Assembly (NCBI GenBank): GCA_014762505.1
Contig: JABURS010000029.1
Location: 60,178-124,177, forward strand
Direction of reading: 5' to 3'
Length of the DNA stretch: 64,000 bases
Source: Chromatiales bacterium
GTDB lineage: Bacteria; Pseudomonadota; Gammaproteobacteria; SpSt-1174
The position numbers and the translations under genes are program-made. The number at the start of each line of letters is the position of its first letter. Within the stretch, counting starts at the first letter, position 1. Positions 4,176 through 24,287 of this stretch are shown one piece after another. Under the pieces are notes generated by a model. The model did not search any database and was not told the DNA's origin. It saw only the letters and a list, made by a program, of their open reading frames with translations.

Positions 4176-4329
4176 CGTGTGCCCCTTAAAGCCTGGTGAA
4201 ACGTCCAAAAGGCAAAAATTTAGCCTGCGAAGCATACAGAAAAATTTGCAAATGGCAAATTAAGGCCGAGCAGGACAGTGGGTTATAGGATGCCAGCCAG
4301 CATCCTACAACCCCGGGATGACGCCCGTA

Positions 4330-9583: not shown

Positions 9584-11158
9584 CTACTTGATTTCAGGCG
9601 CCGTCGTGAAGCTGTGATAGGGCGGCGGGGAGGACAGCGTCCACTCCAGCCCATGCGCACCTTCCCATACCTGATCGGTAGCCTTTTCGCCGCCCCGTAT
9701 CGTCTGGAAGATCAGATAGACGAACAGCAGCTGGGCAAAGCCGAAGCCGAAGGCACCAATCGAGGCGATGGCGTTGAAGTCGGCGAACTGCAGCGCGTAA
9801 TCGGGAATACGCCGCGGCATGCCGGCCAGACCGACGAAATGCATCGGGAAGAAGGTCAGGTTGACGAAGATCGTCGACAGCCAGAAATGCCACTTGCCGA
9901 GCGTCTCGTTATACATGTGACCGGTCCACTTCGGCAGCCAGTAATACACGGCGGCAATGATGGAGAAGACCGCCCCCGGTACCAGCACGTAGTGGAAATG
10001 CGCCACCACGAAATAGGTGTCGTGATACTGGAAATCCACCGGCGCGATGGCGAGCATCAACCCCGAGAAACCGCCAATGGTGAACATGATGACGAAGCCC
10101 AGGGCGAAGAGCATGGGCGTCTCGAAGGTCATCGCCCCCTTCCACATGGTCGCCACCCAGTTGAACACCTTCACCCCGGTCGGCACCGCGATCATCATCG
10201 TGGTCAGCATGAAGAAGAGCTCACCGGCCAGCGGCATCCCCACCGTGAACATGTGGTGCGCCCACACGATGAAGGAGAGGAAGGCGATACTCGCCGTGGC
10301 ATAGACCATGGAGGCATAGCCAAACAGCGGCTTGCGGGCAAAGGTCGGGATGATGCTCGAGGCGATACCGAAGGCCGGCAGGATCAGGATGTACACCTCC
10401 GGATGCCCGAAGAACCAGAAGATGTGCTGGAACATCACCGGGTCACCACCACCGGCCGCACTGAAGAAGCTGGTACCGAAGTACTTGTCGGTGAGCAGCA
10501 TGGTAACCGCCCCCGCCAGCACCGGCATGGTGGCGATCAACAGATAGGCGGTGATCAGCCAGGTCCATACGAACAGGGGCATCTTCATCAGGTTCATGCC
10601 CGGTGCTCGCATGTTGAGGATGGTCGCGATCACGTTGATGGAACCCATGATCGACGAGATCCCCATCAGATGGATGGCGAAGATCACGAAGGGGAATGCA
10701 TCGCCGGTCTGCAGCATGAGCGGGGGATACATGGTCCAGCCACCCGCCGGGCCACCACCATCCATGAAGAGCGTGGACAGCAGCATGGCGAAGGCGAACG
10801 GCAGGATCCAGAAGCTCCAGTTGTTCATGCGCGGCAGGGCCATGTCGGTGGCCCCGACCATCATCGGGATGAGCCAGTTGGCCAACCCGGTAAAGGCCGG
10901 CATGACCACACCGAAGATCATCACCAGCGCATGCATGGTGGTCATGGAGTTGAAGAACTGCGGCTCGACCATCTGCAACCCGGGCTCGAACAGTTCGGCA
11001 CGGATCACCAGGGCCATCGCCCCGCCGATGAAGAACATCAGCAGCGCGAACATCAGGTACAGGCTGCCGATATCCTTGTGGTTGGTGGTGAACAGCCAGC
11101 GCTTGATGCCGCTCGGATGCTCTTCGTGGTGATGCGTTTCGGAAATCACAGCACTCAT
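9584..11158 (-). CDS. coxA: aa3-type cytochrome c oxidase subunit I
   Basis: 524 aa haem-copper oxidase subunit I (MSAVISETHHHEEHPSGIKRWLFTTNHKDIG...). Confidence 0.95.
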   Translation of the reverse strand: MSAVISETHHHEEHPSGIKRWLFTTNHKDIGSLYLMFALLMFFIGGAMALVIRAELFEPGLQMVEPQFFNSMTTMHALVMIFGVVMPAFTGLANWLIPMMVGATDMALPRMNNWSFWILPFAFAMLLSTLFMDGGGPAGGWTMYPPLMLQTGDAFPFVIFAIHLMGISSIMGSINVIATILNMRAPGMNLMKMPLFVWTWLITAYLLIATMPVLAGAVTMLLTDKYFGTSFFSAAGGGDPVMFQHIFWFFGHPEVYILILPAFGIASSIIPTFARKPLFGYASMVYATASIAFLSFIVWAHHMFTVGMPLAGELFFMLTTMMIAVPTGVKVFNWVATMWKGAMTFETPMLFALGFVIMFTIGGFSGLMLAIAPVDFQYHDTYFVVAHFHYVLVPGAVFSIIAAVYYWLPKWTGHMYNETLGKWHFWLSTIFVNLTFFPMHFVGLAGMPRRIPDYALQFADFNAIASIGAFGFGFAQLLFVYLIFQTIRGGEKATDQVWEGAHGLEWTLSSPPPYHSFTTAPEIK

Positions 11159-11180: not shown

Positions 11181-12308
11181 TCAGCGCGCCGCCTTGATAT
11201 CGGTGGGTTGGATCACGTCGCCGGTATCGTTACCGAAGGCGTTTCGCTGGTACGTGATCACAGCAGCCAGATCGACGTCGCTGAGTTGCGGGCCGAAGGC
11301 GGCCATCGCCGTGCCCGGTACCCCGTTCATGACGAGATCCACATGCCCCTTGATTTCCCCGGTGGCCACGGCACTGCCCTTGATCGCCGGGAACACGCTG
11401 CCCATGCCCTCGCCATTGGCCTGGTGACAGGCGGCGCAGTTGGTGTTGTAGATCTTCTCGCCGCGGGCCATGAGGTCGCTCTTGCCCCATTCCTTGTCTG
11501 AGGCCATCAGCTCGGCTTCACGCGCCGCCTTCTGCTCGGCCACCCAGTCGAGATACTCGTTCTCCTCCATCGCGACGACCACGATCGGCATGAAACCATG
11601 GTCCTTCCCGCACAGCTCGGCACACTGACCGCGATACACGCCCGGCTCATCGATGCGCGTCCACAGCTCGTTGACGAAACCCGGGATGGCATCTTTCTTC
11701 ATGGCCAGATCCGGCACCCAGAAGGCATGGATCACGTCGTTCGCCGTGACCAGGAAACGGATCTTCTTGTTGATCGGCACCACGATCGGGTTGTCCACGT
11801 CCAGCAGATAATGCTCGCCCTTATCGGCGCGGTTCTCGATCGCGGCACGCGGCGTGGCGAGATTGCTGAAGAAGCCGATGCCCTCGTCCATGTAGTCGTA
11901 GTGCCACTTCCACTGATAGCCGGTGACCTTGATGGTCATGTCGGCATTGCTCGTGTCTTCCATGGCGATCAGGGTCTTGGTGGCCGGAATGGCCATGCCT
12001 ACGAGGATCAGGAAGGGCACCAGGGTCCAGAGAATCTCCACCGTGGTGCTCTCGTGGAACTGGGCCGCCTGTACGCCCCTGGATTTGCGGTGCTTGACGA
12101 TGCTGTAGAACATCGCCCCGAAAACGACGATGCCGATGACAACGCAGATCCAGAAGATCAGCATGTGCAGGTCGTAGACGGTATTGCTGATCTCCGTCAC
12201 GCCCCGCGGCATGTTCACTTCCCAGTCCGCGAAGGCCCCTCCGGCTGACATGGCCAGGGCGATGCCTGACAACGCGGCCACTGCCGGTTTCAACTGCGCA
12301 TTCTTCAT
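11181..12308 (-). CDS. coxB: aa3-type cytochrome c oxidase subunit II with C-terminal cytochrome c domain
   Basis: CuA ligands (CAELCGKDHGFM), signal peptide and TMs, C-terminal CAACH haem domain. Confidence 0.93.
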   Translation of the reverse strand: MKNAQLKPAVAALSGIALAMSAGGAFADWEVNMPRGVTEISNTVYDLHMLIFWICVVIGIVVFGAMFYSIVKHRKSRGVQAAQFHESTTVEILWTLVPFLILVGMAIPATKTLIAMEDTSNADMTIKVTGYQWKWHYDYMDEGIGFFSNLATPRAAIENRADKGEHYLLDVDNPIVVPINKKIRFLVTANDVIHAFWVPDLAMKKDAIPGFVNELWTRIDEPGVYRGQCAELCGKDHGFMPIVVVAMEENEYLDWVAEQKAAREAELMASDKEWGKSDLMARGEKIYNTNCAACHQANGEGMGSVFPAIKGSAVATGEIKGHVDLVMNGVPGTAMAAFGPQLSDVDLAAVITYQRNAFGNDTGDVIQPTDIKAAR

Positions 12309-12779
12309 GCGTCCCTCCTAAGTGGTGGTTGAGTGGTGCCGTGGCGCCACTCGGTTTTGCCGAATCCTGTTGCGATCCGTTTGTTGTTATGTCGTTGTTC
12401 TTGTTTTGAGAGGACGCGCCCGCCAGCGGGCGCTCCCGTGCCCTGCTCGCCCGGTCAGCCCGCAGCCCAGCCGGCCATGGCACCACGGCAGGAAGGACGA
12501 TGGACGTGACACGGGTGTCGTCGCATGCAGATCGGCAGGGACGACAAACACCACCCACCATGGCGGATGGCGGCAAGACATAGGGTCAGGGCAAGGACGG
12601 GATGCCGGACGACTGGCATGAAAGACGGGGAGGCCGGCAACAGATGGCCGGGGGTGACAGGTGCTGAACACCGGAGGACTTTGCACAACAGCACCCCGAG
12701 CCGGTGATGAAACCGGCGCCAAAGGGCCTGATTGTCTTGGTGGTTCGCTACCATGCGCCTCCGGGTCCCCTCCGTGATT

Positions 12780-13075
12780 ATTTTGTTATGGGAATCCCCT
12801 CCAGTTACGAGGCATGCTAGCTCAGCGATTCTGGCAGAACAATATCTTTGATTAATTGAGCGTATTAGTATTTTTATATATTTCTTTGCGCTCAAAAACT
12901 ATTTTATGCGGGTCAAAAGTTTTATTTCTCATAAATATCAATGAATTAAACATATTCATTGATCAACGGAATTGTTGATAACCAACCTTTATAAAATTCC
13001 TGAATAATACTTTTTTATAATTTCTATGAGTGAATTTGGGCAAATCATCCATTGACGGGCATTTTTGCCAATTTT
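12780..13075. other. AT-rich (~25% GC) 300-bp non-coding island upstream of coxB and downstream of bioC
   Basis: Sharp compositional drop in a ~67% GC genome; contains an IHF-consensus tATCAAtgaaTTA (12927-12939), a TTGATCAA palindrome and a promoter-like module shared with the pilM promoter. Confidence 0.6.
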
Positions 13076-13975
13076 CTATTCCTGCACCTTGCCCCCTGAG
13101 GGCAGCGACTGCACCCGCACGGGAATACCGATGGGGCGCCCGCCAGCCCCGGAAGACGGGGGCGGTGCATCCGGCGCCCATGCATGGCCGTACACCACCT
13201 CGTAGCTCGCGGGCAAGAGCCCCTGCCCGGTCCGATACGCCTCGTAGGCCGCCTCCACCGCCCGCAGGCGCGACTTGCCGGTCAGCCCCCGCGCACGCTC
13301 GTGCAGGGCGTTACCCGCACCGATCCGCTTGAGATCCCGCATGAGCTGACGCGCCTGCGGGTAGGTGACGGTGAGCATCTCCATGTCCATCACGGGGTCG
13401 GCGAAGCCGGCCCGCACCAGGGCATCGCCCACGTCATGCATATCGAGGAAGGCGTTCACGTGCGGATGATCGTCCACACGCGACCAGGCATCGCGCAGCT
13501 CCCTGAGCGTATCGGGGCCAAAGCTGGTGAACAGCAGCAGCCCCTGCGGGGCGAGCACCCGGCGCAGCTCGGCGAACACGCGGTCGATGTCCTCGACCCA
13601 CTGCAGGGTGAGATTGGAAAAGACCAGGTCGAAACTGCCGTCGGCGAAGGGCAGGGCCTCGATATCGGCATTCACCGGCAGGGGGCGGCGGCGCCAGCGT
13701 CCGCGGCGCCGGGCGATCTGCAGCATGCCGTAGGCGAGATCCAGCGAGATCACCTGCGACTTCGGGTAGCGGCGCAGCAGGGCATCCGCGGCACGGCCGG
13801 TACCGGTGCCGGCATCGAGGACGCGGCCCGGCGCGATCTTCATGTAATCGAGCCGCTCCAGCAGCCGGCCGCGCACCTCGTGCTGCAGCACGGCGGCCTC
13901 GTCGTAGGCGCGCGCGGCGGCATCGAAGGACTGTCGCACGCGGTGCTTGTCGATATGCCAGGGCCTGTCGCTCAC
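13076..13975 (-). CDS. bioC: malonyl-ACP O-methyltransferase
   Basis: Class I SAM methyltransferase motifs (LDAGTGTG); 4-nt overlap with upstream bioH. Confidence 0.8.
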   Translation of the reverse strand: MSDRPWHIDKHRVRQSFDAAARAYDEAAVLQHEVRGRLLERLDYMKIAPGRVLDAGTGTGRAADALLRRYPKSQVISLDLAYGMLQIARRRGRWRRRPLPVNADIEALPFADGSFDLVFSNLTLQWVEDIDRVFAELRRVLAPQGLLLFTSFGPDTLRELRDAWSRVDDHPHVNAFLDMHDVGDALVRAGFADPVMDMEMLTVTYPQARQLMRDLKRIGAGNALHERARGLTGKSRLRAVEAAYEAYRTGQGLLPASYEVVYGHAWAPDAPPPSSGAGGRPIGIPVRVQSLPSGGKVQE

Positions 13976-14748
13976 GCCGGCACGCCCTCCAGGGCAGCGA
14001 GAAAACGGCCCGGGTGCGTCAGAAAGGGGGCGTGACCGGCCCCCTCGATGACGGTGATCGCCATGTCAGGGCGCAGGGCGGTCAGCGATGCCGCCACCGC
14101 GACAGGGACCAGGGTATCCAGTTCGCCCAGCACGGCTGCCACCGGCCCGGGGTAACCCGCCAGCGCCGGCCGCAGGTCGGCACCGCCGAGCATGGCCAGG
14201 CCATCGCGCAGGCTCTCCGCCGCCGGCGGGTGGGCCGCCAGCCCGGCACGCAGGCCGCGCAGGGTCTCGCCCGCCCCCTTCACGCCGCGAAACTGCAGGG
14301 TGAGAAAGCGGCCGAGCGTGGCCTCGAAATCCGTCGCCAGGCCATCGGCGAAGGCCGCCAGCGTCGCCGGGGCCATGGCGCAGGGCCAGTCCGGCTGCTG
14401 CGTGAACCGGGGGTTGCTGGCCACCAGCAGCAGCCGCGTCACCCGCTCCGGCGCCTGCGCCGCGGCCGCCGTGGCGATCATGCCGCCCAGGGACCAACCG
14501 ACCCAGGCAGCGGCCGGCGGGGCCGCCGCCAGCACGGCCGAGGCGGCCTGTTCGAGGCCACCCAGGCGCCCGGGCGAGCGCCCGTGACCGGGCAGATCGA
14601 TCACGCTCACCCGGTAGTGCGCCGCCAGTCGCGGCAGCAGCGTCGACCAGACGCCACCGTGCAGCCCCCAGCCGTGCAGCAGGACGAGGTCGGGACCCTC
14701 ACCGGTCACGCTGACATGCAGTCGGGTATCGCTCAAAGATCCTTCCAT
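13972..14748 (-). CDS. bioH: pimeloyl-ACP methyl ester carboxylesterase
   Basis: alpha/beta hydrolase (GWSLGG nucleophile elbow). The track ORF is N-extended to 14826; probable start MEGSLSDTRLHV. Confidence 0.75.
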   Translation of the reverse strand: MEGSLSDTRLHVSVTGEGPDLVLLHGWGLHGGVWSTLLPRLAAHYRVSVIDLPGHGRSPGRLGGLEQAASAVLAAAPPAAAWVGWSLGGMIATAAAAQAPERVTRLLLVASNPRFTQQPDWPCAMAPATLAAFADGLATDFEATLGRFLTLQFRGVKGAGETLRGLRAGLAAHPPAAESLRDGLAMLGGADLRPALAGYPGPVAAVLGELDTLVPVAVAASLTALRPDMAITVIEGAGHAPFLTHPGRFLAALEGVPA

Positions 14749-14824
14749 CCCCGGGCCGGCGCTCGCCGTCACCCGTCTTCTGCGGTTATCATCGGCGCCC
14801 CACACCTTCCGGACGTGAGCCGCC

Positions 14825-15418
14825 ATGCTGGAAAACAGTCTGCTGATCGTCGCCGCCTACCTGCTCGGTTCGGTAGCGACCGCCATCATCACCTGCCGCC
14901 TGATGGGCCTGCCGGACCCGCGCGGGGTGGGCTCGGGCAACCCGGGCGCGACCAACGTGCTGCGCGAGGGCGGCAAAAAGGCGGCCATCATCACGCTTCT
15001 GGGCGACATGCTCAAGGGGCTCGTCCCGGTGCTGGTCGGCCACGCCCTGGGCGTGGCCGACTGGGCCCTGGCCGCGATCGGTCTCGCGGCCTTCATCGGC
15101 CACCTCTATCCCGTGTACTTCGGCTTCAAGGGCGGCAAGGGGGTGGCCACCGCACTGGGCGTGTCGCTGGGCTTTCACTGGGGACTGGGGCTGGCGGTAC
15201 TGGTCACCTGGCTGGCGATGGCCTTCCTCACCCGCATCTCCTCGCTGTCGGCCCTGACCGCCTCGCTGCTCGCGCCCCTCTACGCCTGGCTCATCACGGG
15301 CTCGACGGCACTGACCGTGGCCGCCGCCCTCATGGCCGTGCTGGTGTTCTGGCGCCACCGCAGCAACATCCGCAACCTGCTCGACGGCACCGAGGGGCGC
15401 ATCGGCGCGAAGAAGTAG
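14825..15418 (+). CDS. plsY: glycerol-3-phosphate acyltransferase PlsY
   Basis: 197 aa, GSGNPGATN motif. Confidence 0.9.
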   Translation: MLENSLLIVAAYLLGSVATAIITCRLMGLPDPRGVGSGNPGATNVLREGGKKAAIITLLGDMLKGLVPVLVGHALGVADWALAAIGLAAFIGHLYPVYFGFKGGKGVATALGVSLGFHWGLGLAVLVTWLAMAFLTRISSLSALTASLLAPLYAWLITGSTALTVAAALMAVLVFWRHRSNIRNLLDGTEGRIGAKK

Positions 15419-20541: not shown

Positions 20542-23046
20542 TCAGAACAGTTGTTCGGGCACCTCGAGCGTACCATTGCCGCCGCCGGCGGTCTCCCCGT
20601 CCTCGCCACCCAGCGACAGCTCGGCCTCGGGCAGGTTGTCGGCACGGAAGGTCTCGAAGATGGCATCCGGGTTGTCACTGCCGGCAAGCAGGCCCGTCTC
20701 CGGGTCGATACGCACCGTCACCATGCCGTCGGGCTGTGGCAGCGTGTGCTCGGGCCGTCCGGCCAGCACCTCGCCCATGTAACCGATCCAGATCGGCAGG
20801 GCGGCCGAGGCGCCCGTCTCGCCGCGGCCGAGCGGCTGCAGCTGATCGAAACCGACCCAGACGGTGGTGACGACATCGGCGTTGAAGCCGCTGAACCAGG
20901 CATCGTTGCCATCGTTTGTGGTGCCGGTCTTGCCGGAGAGGTCGTTACGCCCCAGCTGCATGGCACGCACGCCGGTACCTTCCTGCACCACCGAGCGCAG
21001 CATGCTGGTAATCAGGTAGGCATTCTGCGGCGGGATGACCCGTTCGGCCGGCAGCCAGGGCGCCGGCTCGGCAGGCTCCGTAGCGCCCTCGGCCGTCTCG
21101 TCTCCCGATGCAGCAGCCGCCTCGCAGTCTGACTCACAGACCCTTTTCGGCTGCGCCGTGAACAACACCTCGCCGACACCGTCCTCGATGCGCTCGATGA
21201 AATAGGGTTCGACCAGAAAGCCGCCATTGGCGAACACGCCGTAGGCGCGCACCATCTCCAGCGGCGTGATGGTGCCGCTGCCCAGCGCCAGGGAGAGGTC
21301 GCGCGGCAGCCGGCCCATGTCGAAACCGAAGCGCCCCACGTAGCGATAGCCATAGCCGAGCCCCATGGACTGCAGCAGGCGGATGGATACCAGGTTGCGT
21401 GACTTCGTCAGCGCCATGCGCAGACGCGTGGGCCCGTAGAAGCGGCCGCTGTAGTTTTCCGGTCGCCACTCGGCCTCCAGGGCCGGGTCATCGAACACCA
21501 CCGGGGCATCGTTGACCAGCGTAGCCGGTGTGAAGCCCTTTTCGAGCGCGGCCGAGTAGATAAAGGGCTTGAAGACGGAACCCGGCTGGCGCTCCGCCTG
21601 AACGGCCCGGTTGAACTTGCTCTGCTCGAAGTCGAAACCACCAACCACGGCCAGCAGCGCCCCGTCCTCGGGCCGCATGGAGACCACGGCGCCCGAGACC
21701 ACCGGCACCTGGCGCAACGACCAGTAGGTCAACGGCACCTCGTCCGTCGGCGCCTTCCCGTCATCCCCGGCAACCGATTCCGGCAGGCTGGCAAAGGGCT
21801 CGACGCGTACCAGGTCGCCCGGGGCCAGCACCTCGCCTGCAGACTCCAGCTCGCCGCCGACGGTACTTTCATCGATATAACGCCTCGCCCACTGCATGCC
21901 CTCCCAGGGGATGACGCCATAGCCGAGGTTATCCACATACACCCGCGCCTGGCGCTCCTCGACCGACACGACCACTGCCGGGAGCAGACCACCCACCACC
22001 GTGTAGGGCTGCAAGAGCGATTCCAGCGCCTCCGCACCGGCCTCCTCCGGGAGCTCGGGCAGCTCGAGCCGGGCCTCCGGACCACGGTAACCATGCCGCA
22101 GGTCGTAGTCGAGCAGGCCCGCACGCAGCGCCCGATTGGCGGCGGCCTGCGCCCCGGCATCGATCGTGGTGTAGACGCGATAACCGCCGGTATAGGCCTC
22201 TTCCCCATAGCGTTCCACCATCACGGCACGCACCATCTCCCCGAGATACGGGGCATCGATCTCGGTCCGGGAGAGGTGCACACCGGCCGTCAGCGGCGCC
22301 ACCACGGCGATATCGAACTGCGCCTGGTCGATCCGGTCGAGTTCGAGCAGCCGGCGCAGCACGTAGTTGCGACGCTCCATGGCCCGTTCGGGGTTGACGA
22401 TGGGGTTGTAGCGTGACGGGGCCTTGGGCAGGCCGGCGATCATCGCGATCTCGGGCAGGGTCAGCTCATCCACCGTCTTGTTGTAATAGACCTGCGCCGC
22501 CGCACCCACGCCATAGGCCCGGTTGCCGAGATAGATCTTGTTGAGATACAGCTCGAGGATCTCGTCCTTGTTGAGCTCCTTCTCGATCTTGAAGGACAGA
22601 AAGATCTCTCGCAGCTTGCGGGTGTAGGTCTTCTCCGGGCTGAGGAAGAAGTTGCGCGCCACCTGCATGGTGATGGTACTCGCGCCCTGGCCACGATCGC
22701 CGGTCAGGTAGTTGCTGATGGCCGCGCGCAGGATGCCACGATAGTCCACGCCCGGATGGGTATAGAAGCGCTCGTCTTCGGCAGCGAGAAAGGCGTCCCG
22801 CAGGGTGACGGGGATGTCTTCGATGGCCAGCGGCACACGGCGCTTCTCACCGTACTCCGCCACCAGCAGGCCGTCCTTGCTATATACCCGCAGAGGCACC
22901 TGCATGCGCATGTCACGCAGCACCTCGACATCCGGAAGATCACGGGCAAAATAGAGATAGGCGCCGCCAACGGCCAGCGCGCCGCTGATCGCGCCGGCCA
23001 GGGCCAGGTAGAGACCCCAGCGGACAAGACGCAGAAAAGGTTTCAT
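20542..23046 (-). CDS. mrcA: penicillin-binding protein 1A (bifunctional transglycosylase/transpeptidase)
   Basis: 834 aa; GT51 motifs (EDERFYTHPGVD, RKLREI), SxxK/KTG transpeptidase; divergent from pilM as in E. coli and Pseudomonas. Confidence 0.93.
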   Translation of the reverse strand: MKPFLRLVRWGLYLALAGAISGALAVGGAYLYFARDLPDVEVLRDMRMQVPLRVYSKDGLLVAEYGEKRRVPLAIEDIPVTLRDAFLAAEDERFYTHPGVDYRGILRAAISNYLTGDRGQGASTITMQVARNFFLSPEKTYTRKLREIFLSFKIEKELNKDEILELYLNKIYLGNRAYGVGAAAQVYYNKTVDELTLPEIAMIAGLPKAPSRYNPIVNPERAMERRNYVLRRLLELDRIDQAQFDIAVVAPLTAGVHLSRTEIDAPYLGEMVRAVMVERYGEEAYTGGYRVYTTIDAGAQAAANRALRAGLLDYDLRHGYRGPEARLELPELPEEAGAEALESLLQPYTVVGGLLPAVVVSVEERQARVYVDNLGYGVIPWEGMQWARRYIDESTVGGELESAGEVLAPGDLVRVEPFASLPESVAGDDGKAPTDEVPLTYWSLRQVPVVSGAVVSMRPEDGALLAVVGGFDFEQSKFNRAVQAERQPGSVFKPFIYSAALEKGFTPATLVNDAPVVFDDPALEAEWRPENYSGRFYGPTRLRMALTKSRNLVSIRLLQSMGLGYGYRYVGRFGFDMGRLPRDLSLALGSGTITPLEMVRAYGVFANGGFLVEPYFIERIEDGVGEVLFTAQPKRVCESDCEAAAASGDETAEGATEPAEPAPWLPAERVIPPQNAYLITSMLRSVVQEGTGVRAMQLGRNDLSGKTGTTNDGNDAWFSGFNADVVTTVWVGFDQLQPLGRGETGASAALPIWIGYMGEVLAGRPEHTLPQPDGMVTVRIDPETGLLAGSDNPDAIFETFRADNLPEAELSLGGEDGETAGGGNGTLEVPEQLF

Positions 23047-23133
23047 ATATTATGTGCTTACGTGAGGTACGAATGGGGGCGGGTCCAGACTGCCGGGGGC
23101 TATGAAAACCCAATTCCCGGGTGACAACAAGCT

Positions 23134-23163
23134 TTGCAATTTATACTAGTATTTTTATATAGT
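23134..23163 (+). promoter_or_regulatory. candidate sigma70 promoter TTGCAA-N18-TATAGT for pilMNOPQ in an AT-rich divergent region
   Basis: Read directly; spacer and -10 contain the TAGTATTTTTATATA 15-mer also present upstream of coxB. Confidence 0.4.
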
Positions 23164-23228
23164 TGGCGCTAGGATCTAATAAAAAATATAGCAATAATTC
23201 GTAACCACCGGCTCTAAAGGGAAAAACT

Positions 23229-24287
23229 GTGCTCCCGTTCACAAGAAAGAAGGTACCGGTCCTGGGTATCGACATCAGCTCCACCTCGGTGAAGCTGGTT
23301 GAGCTCAGCCCTGCGGGTAACGGCTACAAGGTCGAGAGCCATGCGGTCGAGCCGCTGCCGGCCAACGCCGTCGTGGAAAAGAACATTGCGGAAGTCGAGG
23401 CCGTGGCCGAGACGGTGCGCAAGGCCATCAAGCGAGCAGGCACCAAGAACAAGCTCTGTGCGCTGGCCGTGCCCTCCTCCGCCGTCATCACCAAGGTCAT
23501 CACCATGCCGGCCAGCCTCAGCGATGCCGACATGGAGACCTCCATCCAGCTCGAGGCGGACCAGTACATCCCCTACGCCCTCGAGGAGGTCAACCTCGAC
23601 TTCGAGGTGCTGGGCCCTACCGAGAAGAACCCCGAGACCGTCGATGTGCTGCTGGCTGCCTCGCGCAGCGAGAACGTGGAGATGCGCGTGGCCGCCGCCG
23701 AGATGGCGGGCCTCACGGCCAAGATCGTGGACGTCGAGGCCTACACCATCGAGAACGTCTACCCGCTGATGCCGGAGTTCGACGCCACCAAGGAAAAGGT
23801 CGTCGCCATCATCGACGTCGGCGCCACCATGACCAGCATCAACGTCATGGAACACGGCAAGCTCGCCTATACCCGTGAGCAGCCCTTCGGCGGCAAGCAG
23901 CTCACCGAGGAGATCATGCGCCGCTACGGCCTCTCCTATGAGGAGGCCGGCCTGGCGAAGAAGGAGGGCGGCCTGCCCGACAACTACGTGCCCGAGGTCC
24001 TGGAGCCCTTCAAGGAGACCATGGCCAACCAGGTGCACCGCTTCCTGCAATTCTATTTCGCGGCCAGCCAGATGGCCTCCGTCGACCACATCGTGCTGGC
24101 CGGCGGCTGCGCCTCCATCCGCGGCATCGACGAAATGATCGAATCGCAGATCGGCACGCCGACCACGATCGCCAATCCCTTCTCGCGCATGTCGCTCGCA
24201 TCCCGAATCAATCCGCAGCGCCTGGCAGACGACGCCCCGTCGCTGATCCTCGCCTGCGGCCTGGCCTTGCGGAGGAGTTTCGCCTGA
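23229..24287 (+). CDS. pilM: type IV pilus assembly protein PilM
   Basis: Actin-like ATPase fold protein; GTG start; stop overlaps the pilN ATG. Confidence 0.9.
   Translation: MLPFTRKKVPVLGIDISSTSVKLVELSPAGNGYKVESHAVEPLPANAVVEKNIAEVEAVAETVRKAIKRAGTKNKLCALAVPSSAVITKVITMPASLSDADMETSIQLEADQYIPYALEEVNLDFEVLGPTEKNPETVDVLLAASRSENVEMRVAAAEMAGLTAKIVDVEAYTIENVYPLMPEFDATKEKVVAIIDVGATMTSINVMEHGKLAYTREQPFGGKQLTEEIMRRYGLSYEEAGLAKKEGGLPDNYVPEVLEPFKETMANQVHRFLQFYFAASQMASVDHIVLAGGCASIRGIDEMIESQIGTPTTIANPFSRMSLASRINPQRLADDAPSLILACGLALRRSFA

Follow-up and report, generated by a model that had tools for sequence, protein, structure and literature searches.

The locus examined here raises the question whether an exact repeat of 15 nucleotides, present upstream of cytochrome oxidase genes and again upstream of type IV pilus assembly genes, is one regulatory element used twice or two elements that look alike. 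The 15-mer, TAGTATTTTTATATA, has two exact copies, 12866-12880 and 23147-23161, both on the plus strand of the 64-kb stretch of DNA that was analysed (the window), and a scan of the window gave no third match at two or fewer mismatches. The initial annotation had reported an exact AT-only 15-mer occurring twice, and this is true; the 23148-23162 that it gave for the second copy is one base off, and its first span, 12864-12881, consists of the 15-mer and flanking bases. Its proposal was that the two copies are sites of one regulator or that a promoter module had been duplicated. The comparison of orthologous regions points to a different answer: the identity is probably a lineage-specific coincidence, or a loose convergence, of two independently conserved A/T elements of promoter regions.

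The GC content of the window is 66% overall. When an AT-rich stretch is defined as less than 40% GC over 80 nt, the window has two of them, 12798-13094 and 23098-23257, and a marginal third, 4183-4266. The earlier statement that the window has no strongly AT-rich intergenic regions other than the two with the copies holds in this GC scan. The first region, the cox island, is located 470-770 nt upstream of coxB and directly downstream of a bioC-like gene. CoxB is encoded on the minus strand, which corrects the layout assumed previously, and its gene is the first recognisable one downstream of the island. The second region separates the divergent genes mrcA and pilM. Judged by their sequence, both islands appear to be conserved regulatory regions. 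The word TTTTTATA is found in the window at 12871, 13012 and 23152 only, all within the two AT-rich islands. The features discussed below are collected in Table 1.

Table 1. Coordinates of the genes, the two copies of the 15-mer and the sequence elements around them
Feature	Position	Strand	Remarks
coxA	9584-11158	-	
coxB, cytochrome c oxidase subunit II with C-terminal cytochrome c domain	11181-12308	-	Pfam COX2, COX2_TM, Cytochrome_CBB3
Intergenic region, 767 nt	12309-13075		GC-rich from 12309 to ~12780, AT-rich from ~12780 to 13075
Predicted cox operon promoter: -35 TTGTTC 12842-12837, N17, -10 TAGCAT 12819-12814	12814-12842	-	Phylogenetic footprint
Conserved block TGATTAATTGAGCGTAT	12849-12865	+	Adjoins the 15-mer on the left; ~-42 to -58 in the coxB sense; near-invariant in four lineages
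Inverted repeat TTGAGCG / CGCTCAA bracketing copy 1	12856-12862 / 12889-12895		Significance uncertain
15-mer, copy 1, in the AT-rich island between the bioC-like gene and coxB	12866-12880	+	coxB-sense reading TATATAAAAATACTA
Cox 15-mer position, window			TAGTATTTTTATATA
Cox 15-mer position, L178 (lineage L178/179/181)			CAGTATTTTTATATA, 14/15
Cox 15-mer position, L183			TAGAATTTTTTTATA, 13/15
Cox 15-mer position, L171/L173			TAGATTTTTTTTATA, 12/15
A/T tract of 28 nt containing copy 1	12866-12893	+	Length 28 nt in all lineages
Right-hand conserved block AAAAACTATTTTATGC	12894-12909		
Degenerate third copy TAATACTTTTTTATA	13005-13019	+	3 mismatches; conserved block of the distal cox island; coxB-sense reading ATAGAAATTATAAAAAAG, conserved among relatives
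bioC-like methyltransferase	13076-13975	-	
Alpha/beta hydrolase	13972-14826	-	
mrcA (PBP1A)	20542-23046	-	Pfam Transgly and Transpeptidase
TTGCAA-N18-TATAGT, promoter proposed in the initial annotation	23134-23163	+	Consensus scan, 9/12
Putative pilM core-promoter block: CTAGTA 23146-23151, 17-nt spacer containing GTTG, C and -10-like TAGGAT 23170-23175	23146-23175	+	Footprint and consensus
15-mer, copy 2, in the mrcA/pilM divergent intergenic region	23147-23161	+	Exact match
pilM, first gene of pilMNOPQ, divergent from mrcA	23229-24287	+	Pfam PilM_2, E 3e-136

The DNA belongs to an uncultured gammaproteobacterium. Proteins nearly identical to those of the window are labelled 'Chromatiales bacterium' and 'Thioalkalivibrio sp.' in their sources. 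The closest GTDB representatives, with 73-74% PilM identity, are two unclassified Gammaproteobacteria MAGs and Thioalkalivibrio sulfidiphilus. An exact-protein look-up with the CoxB of the window returned no match, and CoxA served as the query instead. Rfam covariance models gave no match at E <=1 in 12250-13150 or 23000-23300, and the sole match at gathering score in the whole window is a tRNA-Met.

Simple chance models agree with the initial annotation that the identity is unlikely to have arisen by chance. Shuffles of the whole window produced 0 matches to the 15-mer. When the two AT-rich regions (301 and 182 nt) were shuffled with their dinucleotides preserved, a shared word of at least 15 was obtained in 0/3000 trials and a word of 14 in 2/3000. 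An empirical null was built from other organisms. Each of 80 cox loci contributed its most AT-rich 301-nt window and each of 80 pilM loci its most AT-rich 182-nt window, and every cox window was paired with every pilM window. Only 1 of these 6400 pairs shared a word of at least 15, and none of the 438 pairs of comparable AT content shared one longer than 13. The identity is thus unusual for a cox/pilM pair, roughly 1e-3 to 1e-4, the pair being one that was picked post hoc. Promoter regions typically contain words made of A and T only, T5 and (TA)n for example. Two unrelated A/T-rich promoter regions in GC-rich DNA can come to share a striking exact repeat, and it is the comparison of orthologues that tells a shared site from a look-alike.

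The layout bioH-bioC-island-coxB is found in lineages L178/179/181 (94% CoxB identity), L171/172/173 (82-84%) and L183 (82%), and in all of these the proximal part of the cox island is strongly conserved. The contigs of a relative with 93% CoxB identity (L168-L170) end before the island. In the four lineages, read in the coxB sense, TTGT and GCTAGCATGCCT are invariant, and the 17-nt spacer between them varies in sequence and is fixed in length, as it would be between the conserved -35 and -10 hexamers of a sigma-70-type promoter. Relatives with 63-70% CoxB identity have TTGnnn-N18-TAGCATGCG after an A/T tract, ahead of a gene for a DUF2244-like membrane protein, which is followed by coxB. The fixed hexamers, the free spacer sequence and the fixed spacer length together place the predicted cox promoter on the minus strand, at the position given in Table 1. 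The consensus scan does not report TTGTTC-N17-TAGCAT, the -35 hexamer of which scores 3/6. This promoter would drive a leader of ~500 nt and coxBA. The promoter-like module that had been described as pointing toward bioC on the plus strand did not withstand the comparison: the conserved promoter points to coxB, and the spacing of TTGAGC-N15-TATATT is not kept in the relatives. A plus-strand promoter, a small RNA and a small ORF were also considered for the distal cox island and were rejected, as it has no conserved spacing, terminator or ORF.

The GC-rich segment 12309-12780 (minus strand, ~450 nt) is partly conserved and occupies the place where L088 and L090-L093 have the DUF2244-like gene. 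A remnant of that gene was sought in it; tblastn gave non-collinear scraps only, and the indels in relatives are not multiples of three, so the segment was treated as a leader and not as a gene. It contains a strong GGAGG-ATG start, with the ATG at 12754-12752 (minus strand), from which MVANHQDNQ..RRF resembles the start of the DUF2244-like protein, with no further homology. The segment may be a degenerated gene that has turned into a long leader.

The cox copy of the 15-mer is located at about -59 to -73 from the predicted transcription start, on the strand opposite to the promoter. It is exact in the close strain L086, which is 97.8% identical to the window over 10.6 kb. The 28-nt tract that contains it is bracketed by two near-invariant blocks, TGATTAATTGRGCGTAT and AAAAACYATTTTATG, and the block on the left of the 15-mer may be where a regulator or the alpha-CTD makes contact. 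Five positions vary in the A/T part of the tract, and at four of them A and T are exchanged. Within the 15-mer itself, positions 4, 5 and 11 flip between A and T among the lineages; the T-run, the ATAT and the blocks on either side do not change. Since the length and composition of the tract are conserved and its exact bases are not, it would be a spacer that is easily bent or melted, set between two conserved blocks to which proteins bind, rather than a base-specific operator.

Several other features of the cox island were observed. The inverted repeat that brackets the 15-mer is changed on both arms in L183 (TTGGGCG / CGCCCAA), and its pairing is broken in L171 and L173. Relatives retain part of a perfect 10-bp inverted repeat, ATCAATGAAT-N7-ATTCATTGAT, that lies at 12937-12963 in the distal island and may serve as the operator of a dimeric regulator. 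A loose direct repeat relates 13005-13030 to 12866-12890 (in the coxB sense, ATAGAAATTATAAAAAAGTATTA and AAAGAAATATATAAAAATACTAA), both parts of which are conserved in relatives, and the distal block, ATAGAAATTATA, shows no change in any of the four lineages. Between 12300 and 13100, 21 of the 26 differences listed between L086 and the window fall at 12900-13048, and two (13086 and 13094) lie just inside the bioC-like gene; 12500-12899 and the bioC coding sequence 13200-14000 are identical. The distribution of these differences points to either a hot spot of local divergence or a patch of recombination at 12900-13050. The public metagenome contig ERZ1742330 NODE_714 opens (L168 1-100) with an adapter-like sequence, GTCTCGTGGGCTCGGAGATGTGTATAAGAGACAG, presumably a Nextera adapter, joined to the cox leader. 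Several contigs of this lineage stop at the AT island or close to it, suggesting that it is a break point of assemblies.

The pilM copy is conserved in a different manner. It is identical in the contigs of the same species (L001-L005) and 13-15 of its 15 positions are kept in relatives with 74-95% PilM identity (L174-L177, L006 and L007). In these relatives, the mrcA-proximal half of the intergenic region has diverged freely, and the conserved footprint is CAACAAG..TGnA..TTA..CTAGTAtTTtTATAnAGTTG...CTAnnATCT. TAGTA occurs at -60 to -140 from the start codon in 25 of 84 pilM-upstream regions as compared to 3% of random 85-nt windows. The consensus of 19 TAGTA-anchored sequences of order-level diversity is C-TAGTA-nT..T....A.TTGC..CTAnnAT.T, and CTAGTAWT, which corresponds to the first half of the pilM 15-mer, is conserved in all of them. 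The deeply conserved part of the pilM 15-mer is therefore its first seven bases; conservation of the rest, TTTTATATA, does not extend beyond the genus-level clade.

The first six bases of the 15-mer, TAGTAT, are found exactly 17 nt upstream of the -10-like hexamer TAGGAT. A -10-like hexamer with T1, A2 and T6 at this fixed distance of 17 nt from TAGTA is present in 18 of the 19 sequences, the exception being L028 with AGATAT. The hexamers seen in the CTAnnAT box are TAGGAT, TAATAT, TAGTAT, TATTAT, TAACAT and TATCAT. The box is located ~47-60 nt from the pilM start codon, and the 15-mer, on the gene-sense strand, occupies -35 to -21 relative to it. The -35 position reads TAGTAT or TAGTAA, so there is no TTGACA-like -35 element 16-18 nt upstream of the -10 box. 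We infer from this conservation that the pilM copy belongs to the core promoter region of pilM, and possibly also to that of mrcA. The 15-mer would be the upstream half of the core-promoter block, with CTAGTA in the place expected of a -35 element or an activator site. Its sequence is unlike TTGACA, so CTAGTA may be bound by an activator or be a -35 element of an unusual kind. Nearly every base is constrained over ~50 bp, the spacer included, which makes an interleaved divergent mrcA promoter plausible. These ~50 bp may carry such a promoter in addition to that of pilM, which would explain the conserved spacer, and a plausible candidate on the minus strand is, for example, TTAGAT-N17-AAAAAT.

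The pilM-upstream block, which lies ~82-95 nt before the start codon in loci L006-L028, L078 and L174-L177, spans Thioalkalivibrio-like, Ectothiorhodospira and Thiotrichales-type MAGs. The promoter TTGCAA-N18-TATAGT, proposed previously for pilM, is returned by the consensus scan, but its TATAGT -10 hexamer is kept only in the genus-level clade. TG.A and TAnAGT are retained in the clade with 74-95% PilM identity, and deeper relatives have no -10-like hexamer at the TATAGT position.

Three other interpretations of the pilM block were rejected. A sigma-54 promoter, with TTGC as the -12 element, is at odds with the lack of a GG element 10 nt upstream in any aligned sequence. AGTATT..AATACT and TTGCA..TGCAA, seen in deep relatives, could be read as an RNA hairpin or a dimer site; their pairing is not kept across sequences. 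A 15-codon upstream ORF, MKTQFPGDNKLCNLY (23102-23149, plus strand), has the TAG of the 15-mer as its stop codon. Relatives with 80-95% PilM identity retain the ATG, the reading frame and the stop, and an in-frame variant is found in L006 and L007. The ORF was dismissed as the cause of the CTAGTA conservation, being confined to the genus-level clade with in-frame stops in deeper relatives, and is probably incidental to the conservation of the DNA.

When the two loci are compared, the conserved cores differ. At pilM the core is C-TAGTA-(A/T)-T with the downstream TTGC..CTAnnAT, and at cox it comprises the T-run, the ATAT and the flanking blocks. The geometry is also different: the pilM copy is in the gene sense and within the core promoter, whereas the cox copy is antisense and upstream of the promoter. 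In 20 nt on each side, the ungapped identity of the flanks of the two copies is 5/20 and 4/20, so that the similarity is at chance level directly outside the 15-mer. The extended pattern TAy-15mer-nTT..GCGCT, noted previously, is present at both loci, but GCGCT is offset by 7 nt from the 15-mer at cox and by 4 nt at pilM.

The most informative case is a contig of a sister species, ERZ27252236 k141_3071973, that carries both loci (L171 for cox and L174 for pilM). At the pilM locus this contig has the 15-mer unchanged, at the cox locus it has TAGATTTTTTTTATA, a 12/15 match, and the longest word common to the two is 10. The best identity between the two regions in a 15-nt window is 13, a value reached by 50 of 300 shuffles, and the resemblance in the sister species is therefore at chance level. 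The perfect identity of the cox and pilM sites is confined to the species of the window and its close strain; in the lineage with 94% CoxB identity the cox site already differs at one position. The operators of one regulon would have the same positions conserved at both loci and would co-vary or remain alike in each genome, and neither is found here.

These findings bear directly on the strongest rival explanation, that the two copies are a shared site. According to it, one protein that binds A/T tracts (a nucleoid-associated or global regulator, Lrp-, Fis-, IHF- or H-NS/MvaT-like, or another) would bind TAGWWTTTTTWTATA at both loci and couple the genes of the aa3-type oxidase to those of type IV pilus assembly. 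This is unlikely, although a number of observations speak for it. The exact identity over 15 nt has the sharp edges of a discrete site, both sites are under purifying selection, and the cox copy is centred near -66, which is typical for an upstream activator or a nucleoid protein. All sampled sites of the clade, at both loci, fit TAGWWTTTTTWTATA, and the pattern has no other occurrence in 183 fetched loci (~1.2 Mb); this clade-wide fit makes some shared constraint possible. The 15-mer also agrees at 12 of 15 positions with what we take to be the Lrp consensus, YAGHAWATTWTDCTR, a lead only, and a weak one for A/T-rich DNA. Against a shared site, the conserved positions, the orientation and the distance to the promoter differ between the loci, the sites of the sister species are no more alike than shuffled DNA, and the window has no further site except the degenerate one inside the cox island. 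The 15-mer contains neither the canonical IHF pattern, which we take to be WATCAANNNNTTR, nor that of Fis, presumably G-N13-C. The common regulator site of the initial annotation finds no support in the comparison of relatives.

The coincidence of two promoter-region elements remains the preferred reading, and it has its own difficulties. For a pair specified beforehand, both the shuffles and the real pairs make the exact identity improbable, and the TAGWWTTTTTWTATA pattern is shared. The cox ancestor may have carried the exact 15-mer, which would also count against coincidence. The ancestral state at cox would distinguish between the two: an ancestral TAGAWTTTTTTTATA would indicate drift, and an ancestral exact 15-mer would make a shared site more likely. 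If a common regulator were true, respiration would be linked to pilus biogenesis.

A more specific proposal is that the 15-mer is the operator of a putative A/T-tract-binding regulator coupling the operons of the aa3-type oxidase and of type IV pilus assembly, perhaps with mrcA, in the Thioalkalivibrio-related lineage, and that CTAGTA-N17-CTAnnAT marks a new control of pilMNOPQ in Chromatiales, Ectothiorhodospirales and Thiotrichales-type relatives. As a whole, this is decidedly doubtful on the sequences compared.

The other explanation offered in the initial annotation, a duplicated promoter module, is very improbable. A copied module of TTGnnn, the 15-mer and TATAnT would direct plus-strand transcription at both loci, of pilM in one case and, in the other, of a transcript toward bioC that is antisense or unannotated. 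TTGCAA-N18-TATAGT is present at pilM and TTGAGC-N15-TATATT at cox, and the equivalent spacing at cox is 17 nt in L171. The cox look-alike, however, has a spacer of 15 nt in the window, is missed by the scan, and its spacing is not conserved in relatives. No conserved ORF, RNA family or terminator is found downstream of it on the plus strand, and the conserved promoter of the cox island points the other way. A duplicated segment or a mobile element would have homologous flanks, terminal repeats or a target duplication, and would be present in some relatives and absent from others. The flanks have no homology, the similarity stopping at the edges of the 15-mer. Each site has orthologues (13-15/15 at pilM, 12-14/15 at cox), both are at orthologous positions in all relatives examined, and the cox island has no homologue among plasmids or phages. 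The orthologous positions indicate that both sites are old, predating the species, and not recent insertions.

The least credible explanation is a short-patch gene conversion in the ancestor of the window species, in which the pilM sequence would have overwritten a similar cox tract 10 kb away and raised it from 12-13/15 to 15/15; the cox site is at 12-14/15 in relatives while pilM is stable, and a 10-nt word is common to both sites even in the sister species, but a microhomology of 10 nt is far below the usual need of homologous recombination, and the two or three A/T substitutions that suffice are supplied by ordinary drift in an A/T-constrained tract.

Two independently conserved elements, the preferred reading, can be compared with known systems. 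UP elements and phased A-tracts, as in E. coli rrnB P1, are A/T-rich sequences, and the canonical UP element is located at about -38 to -59. The cox copy is similar: the tract to which it belongs is made of A and T only, precedes a -35 element of the sigma-70 type and is conserved more in length and A/T content than in sequence. A distal cox block, AGAAATTATAAAAAAG, is written in the style of the rrnB P1 UP sequence. Unlike an UP element, the cox 15-mer lies beyond that position, and -40 to -58 is occupied by a separate conserved block, CAATTAATCA; the pilM 15-mer overlaps the -35 position and the spacer. The CTAnnAT box of pilM and TTGnnn-N17/18-TAGCAT of cox are like the sigma-70 core promoters with a TAnnnT -10 element. 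The pilM block differs from these promoters in having CTAGTA/TAGTAT at the -35 position and a spacer that is itself conserved, which suggests an overlapping regulator site or an interleaved mrcA promoter. The 15-mer is also like the sites of Lrp, Fis, IHF and H-NS, in being A/T-rich, ~15 bp long and upstream of or overlapping promoters.

The gene arrangement at pilM has a counterpart in Neisseria gonorrhoeae, where the divergent ponA-pilMNOPQ control region is MtrR-regulated (Folster et al. 2007, as cited in PMC8053128). According to that citation, the two are alike in that a PBP1 gene is divergent from pilM and a short intergenic region controls both units. The organisms are distant, no TetR-type operator was recognised at the locus described here, and the likeness is one of gene arrangement alone. 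A literature search for a described pilM promoter motif found only this Neisseria MtrR work and gave no account of the pilM-upstream block.

Two footprints have emerged as by-products of the comparison: the cox promoter TTGnnn-N17/18-TAGCAT with its long leader, and the pilM-upstream CTAGTA-N17-CTAnnAT, which could guide the mapping of type IV pilus promoters in sulfur-oxidising Gammaproteobacteria. Both predicted -10 boxes (12814-12819 and 23170-23175) read GCTAG(C/G)AT, the hexamer being directly preceded by a C. A C in this position is associated with RpoS-type promoter preference.
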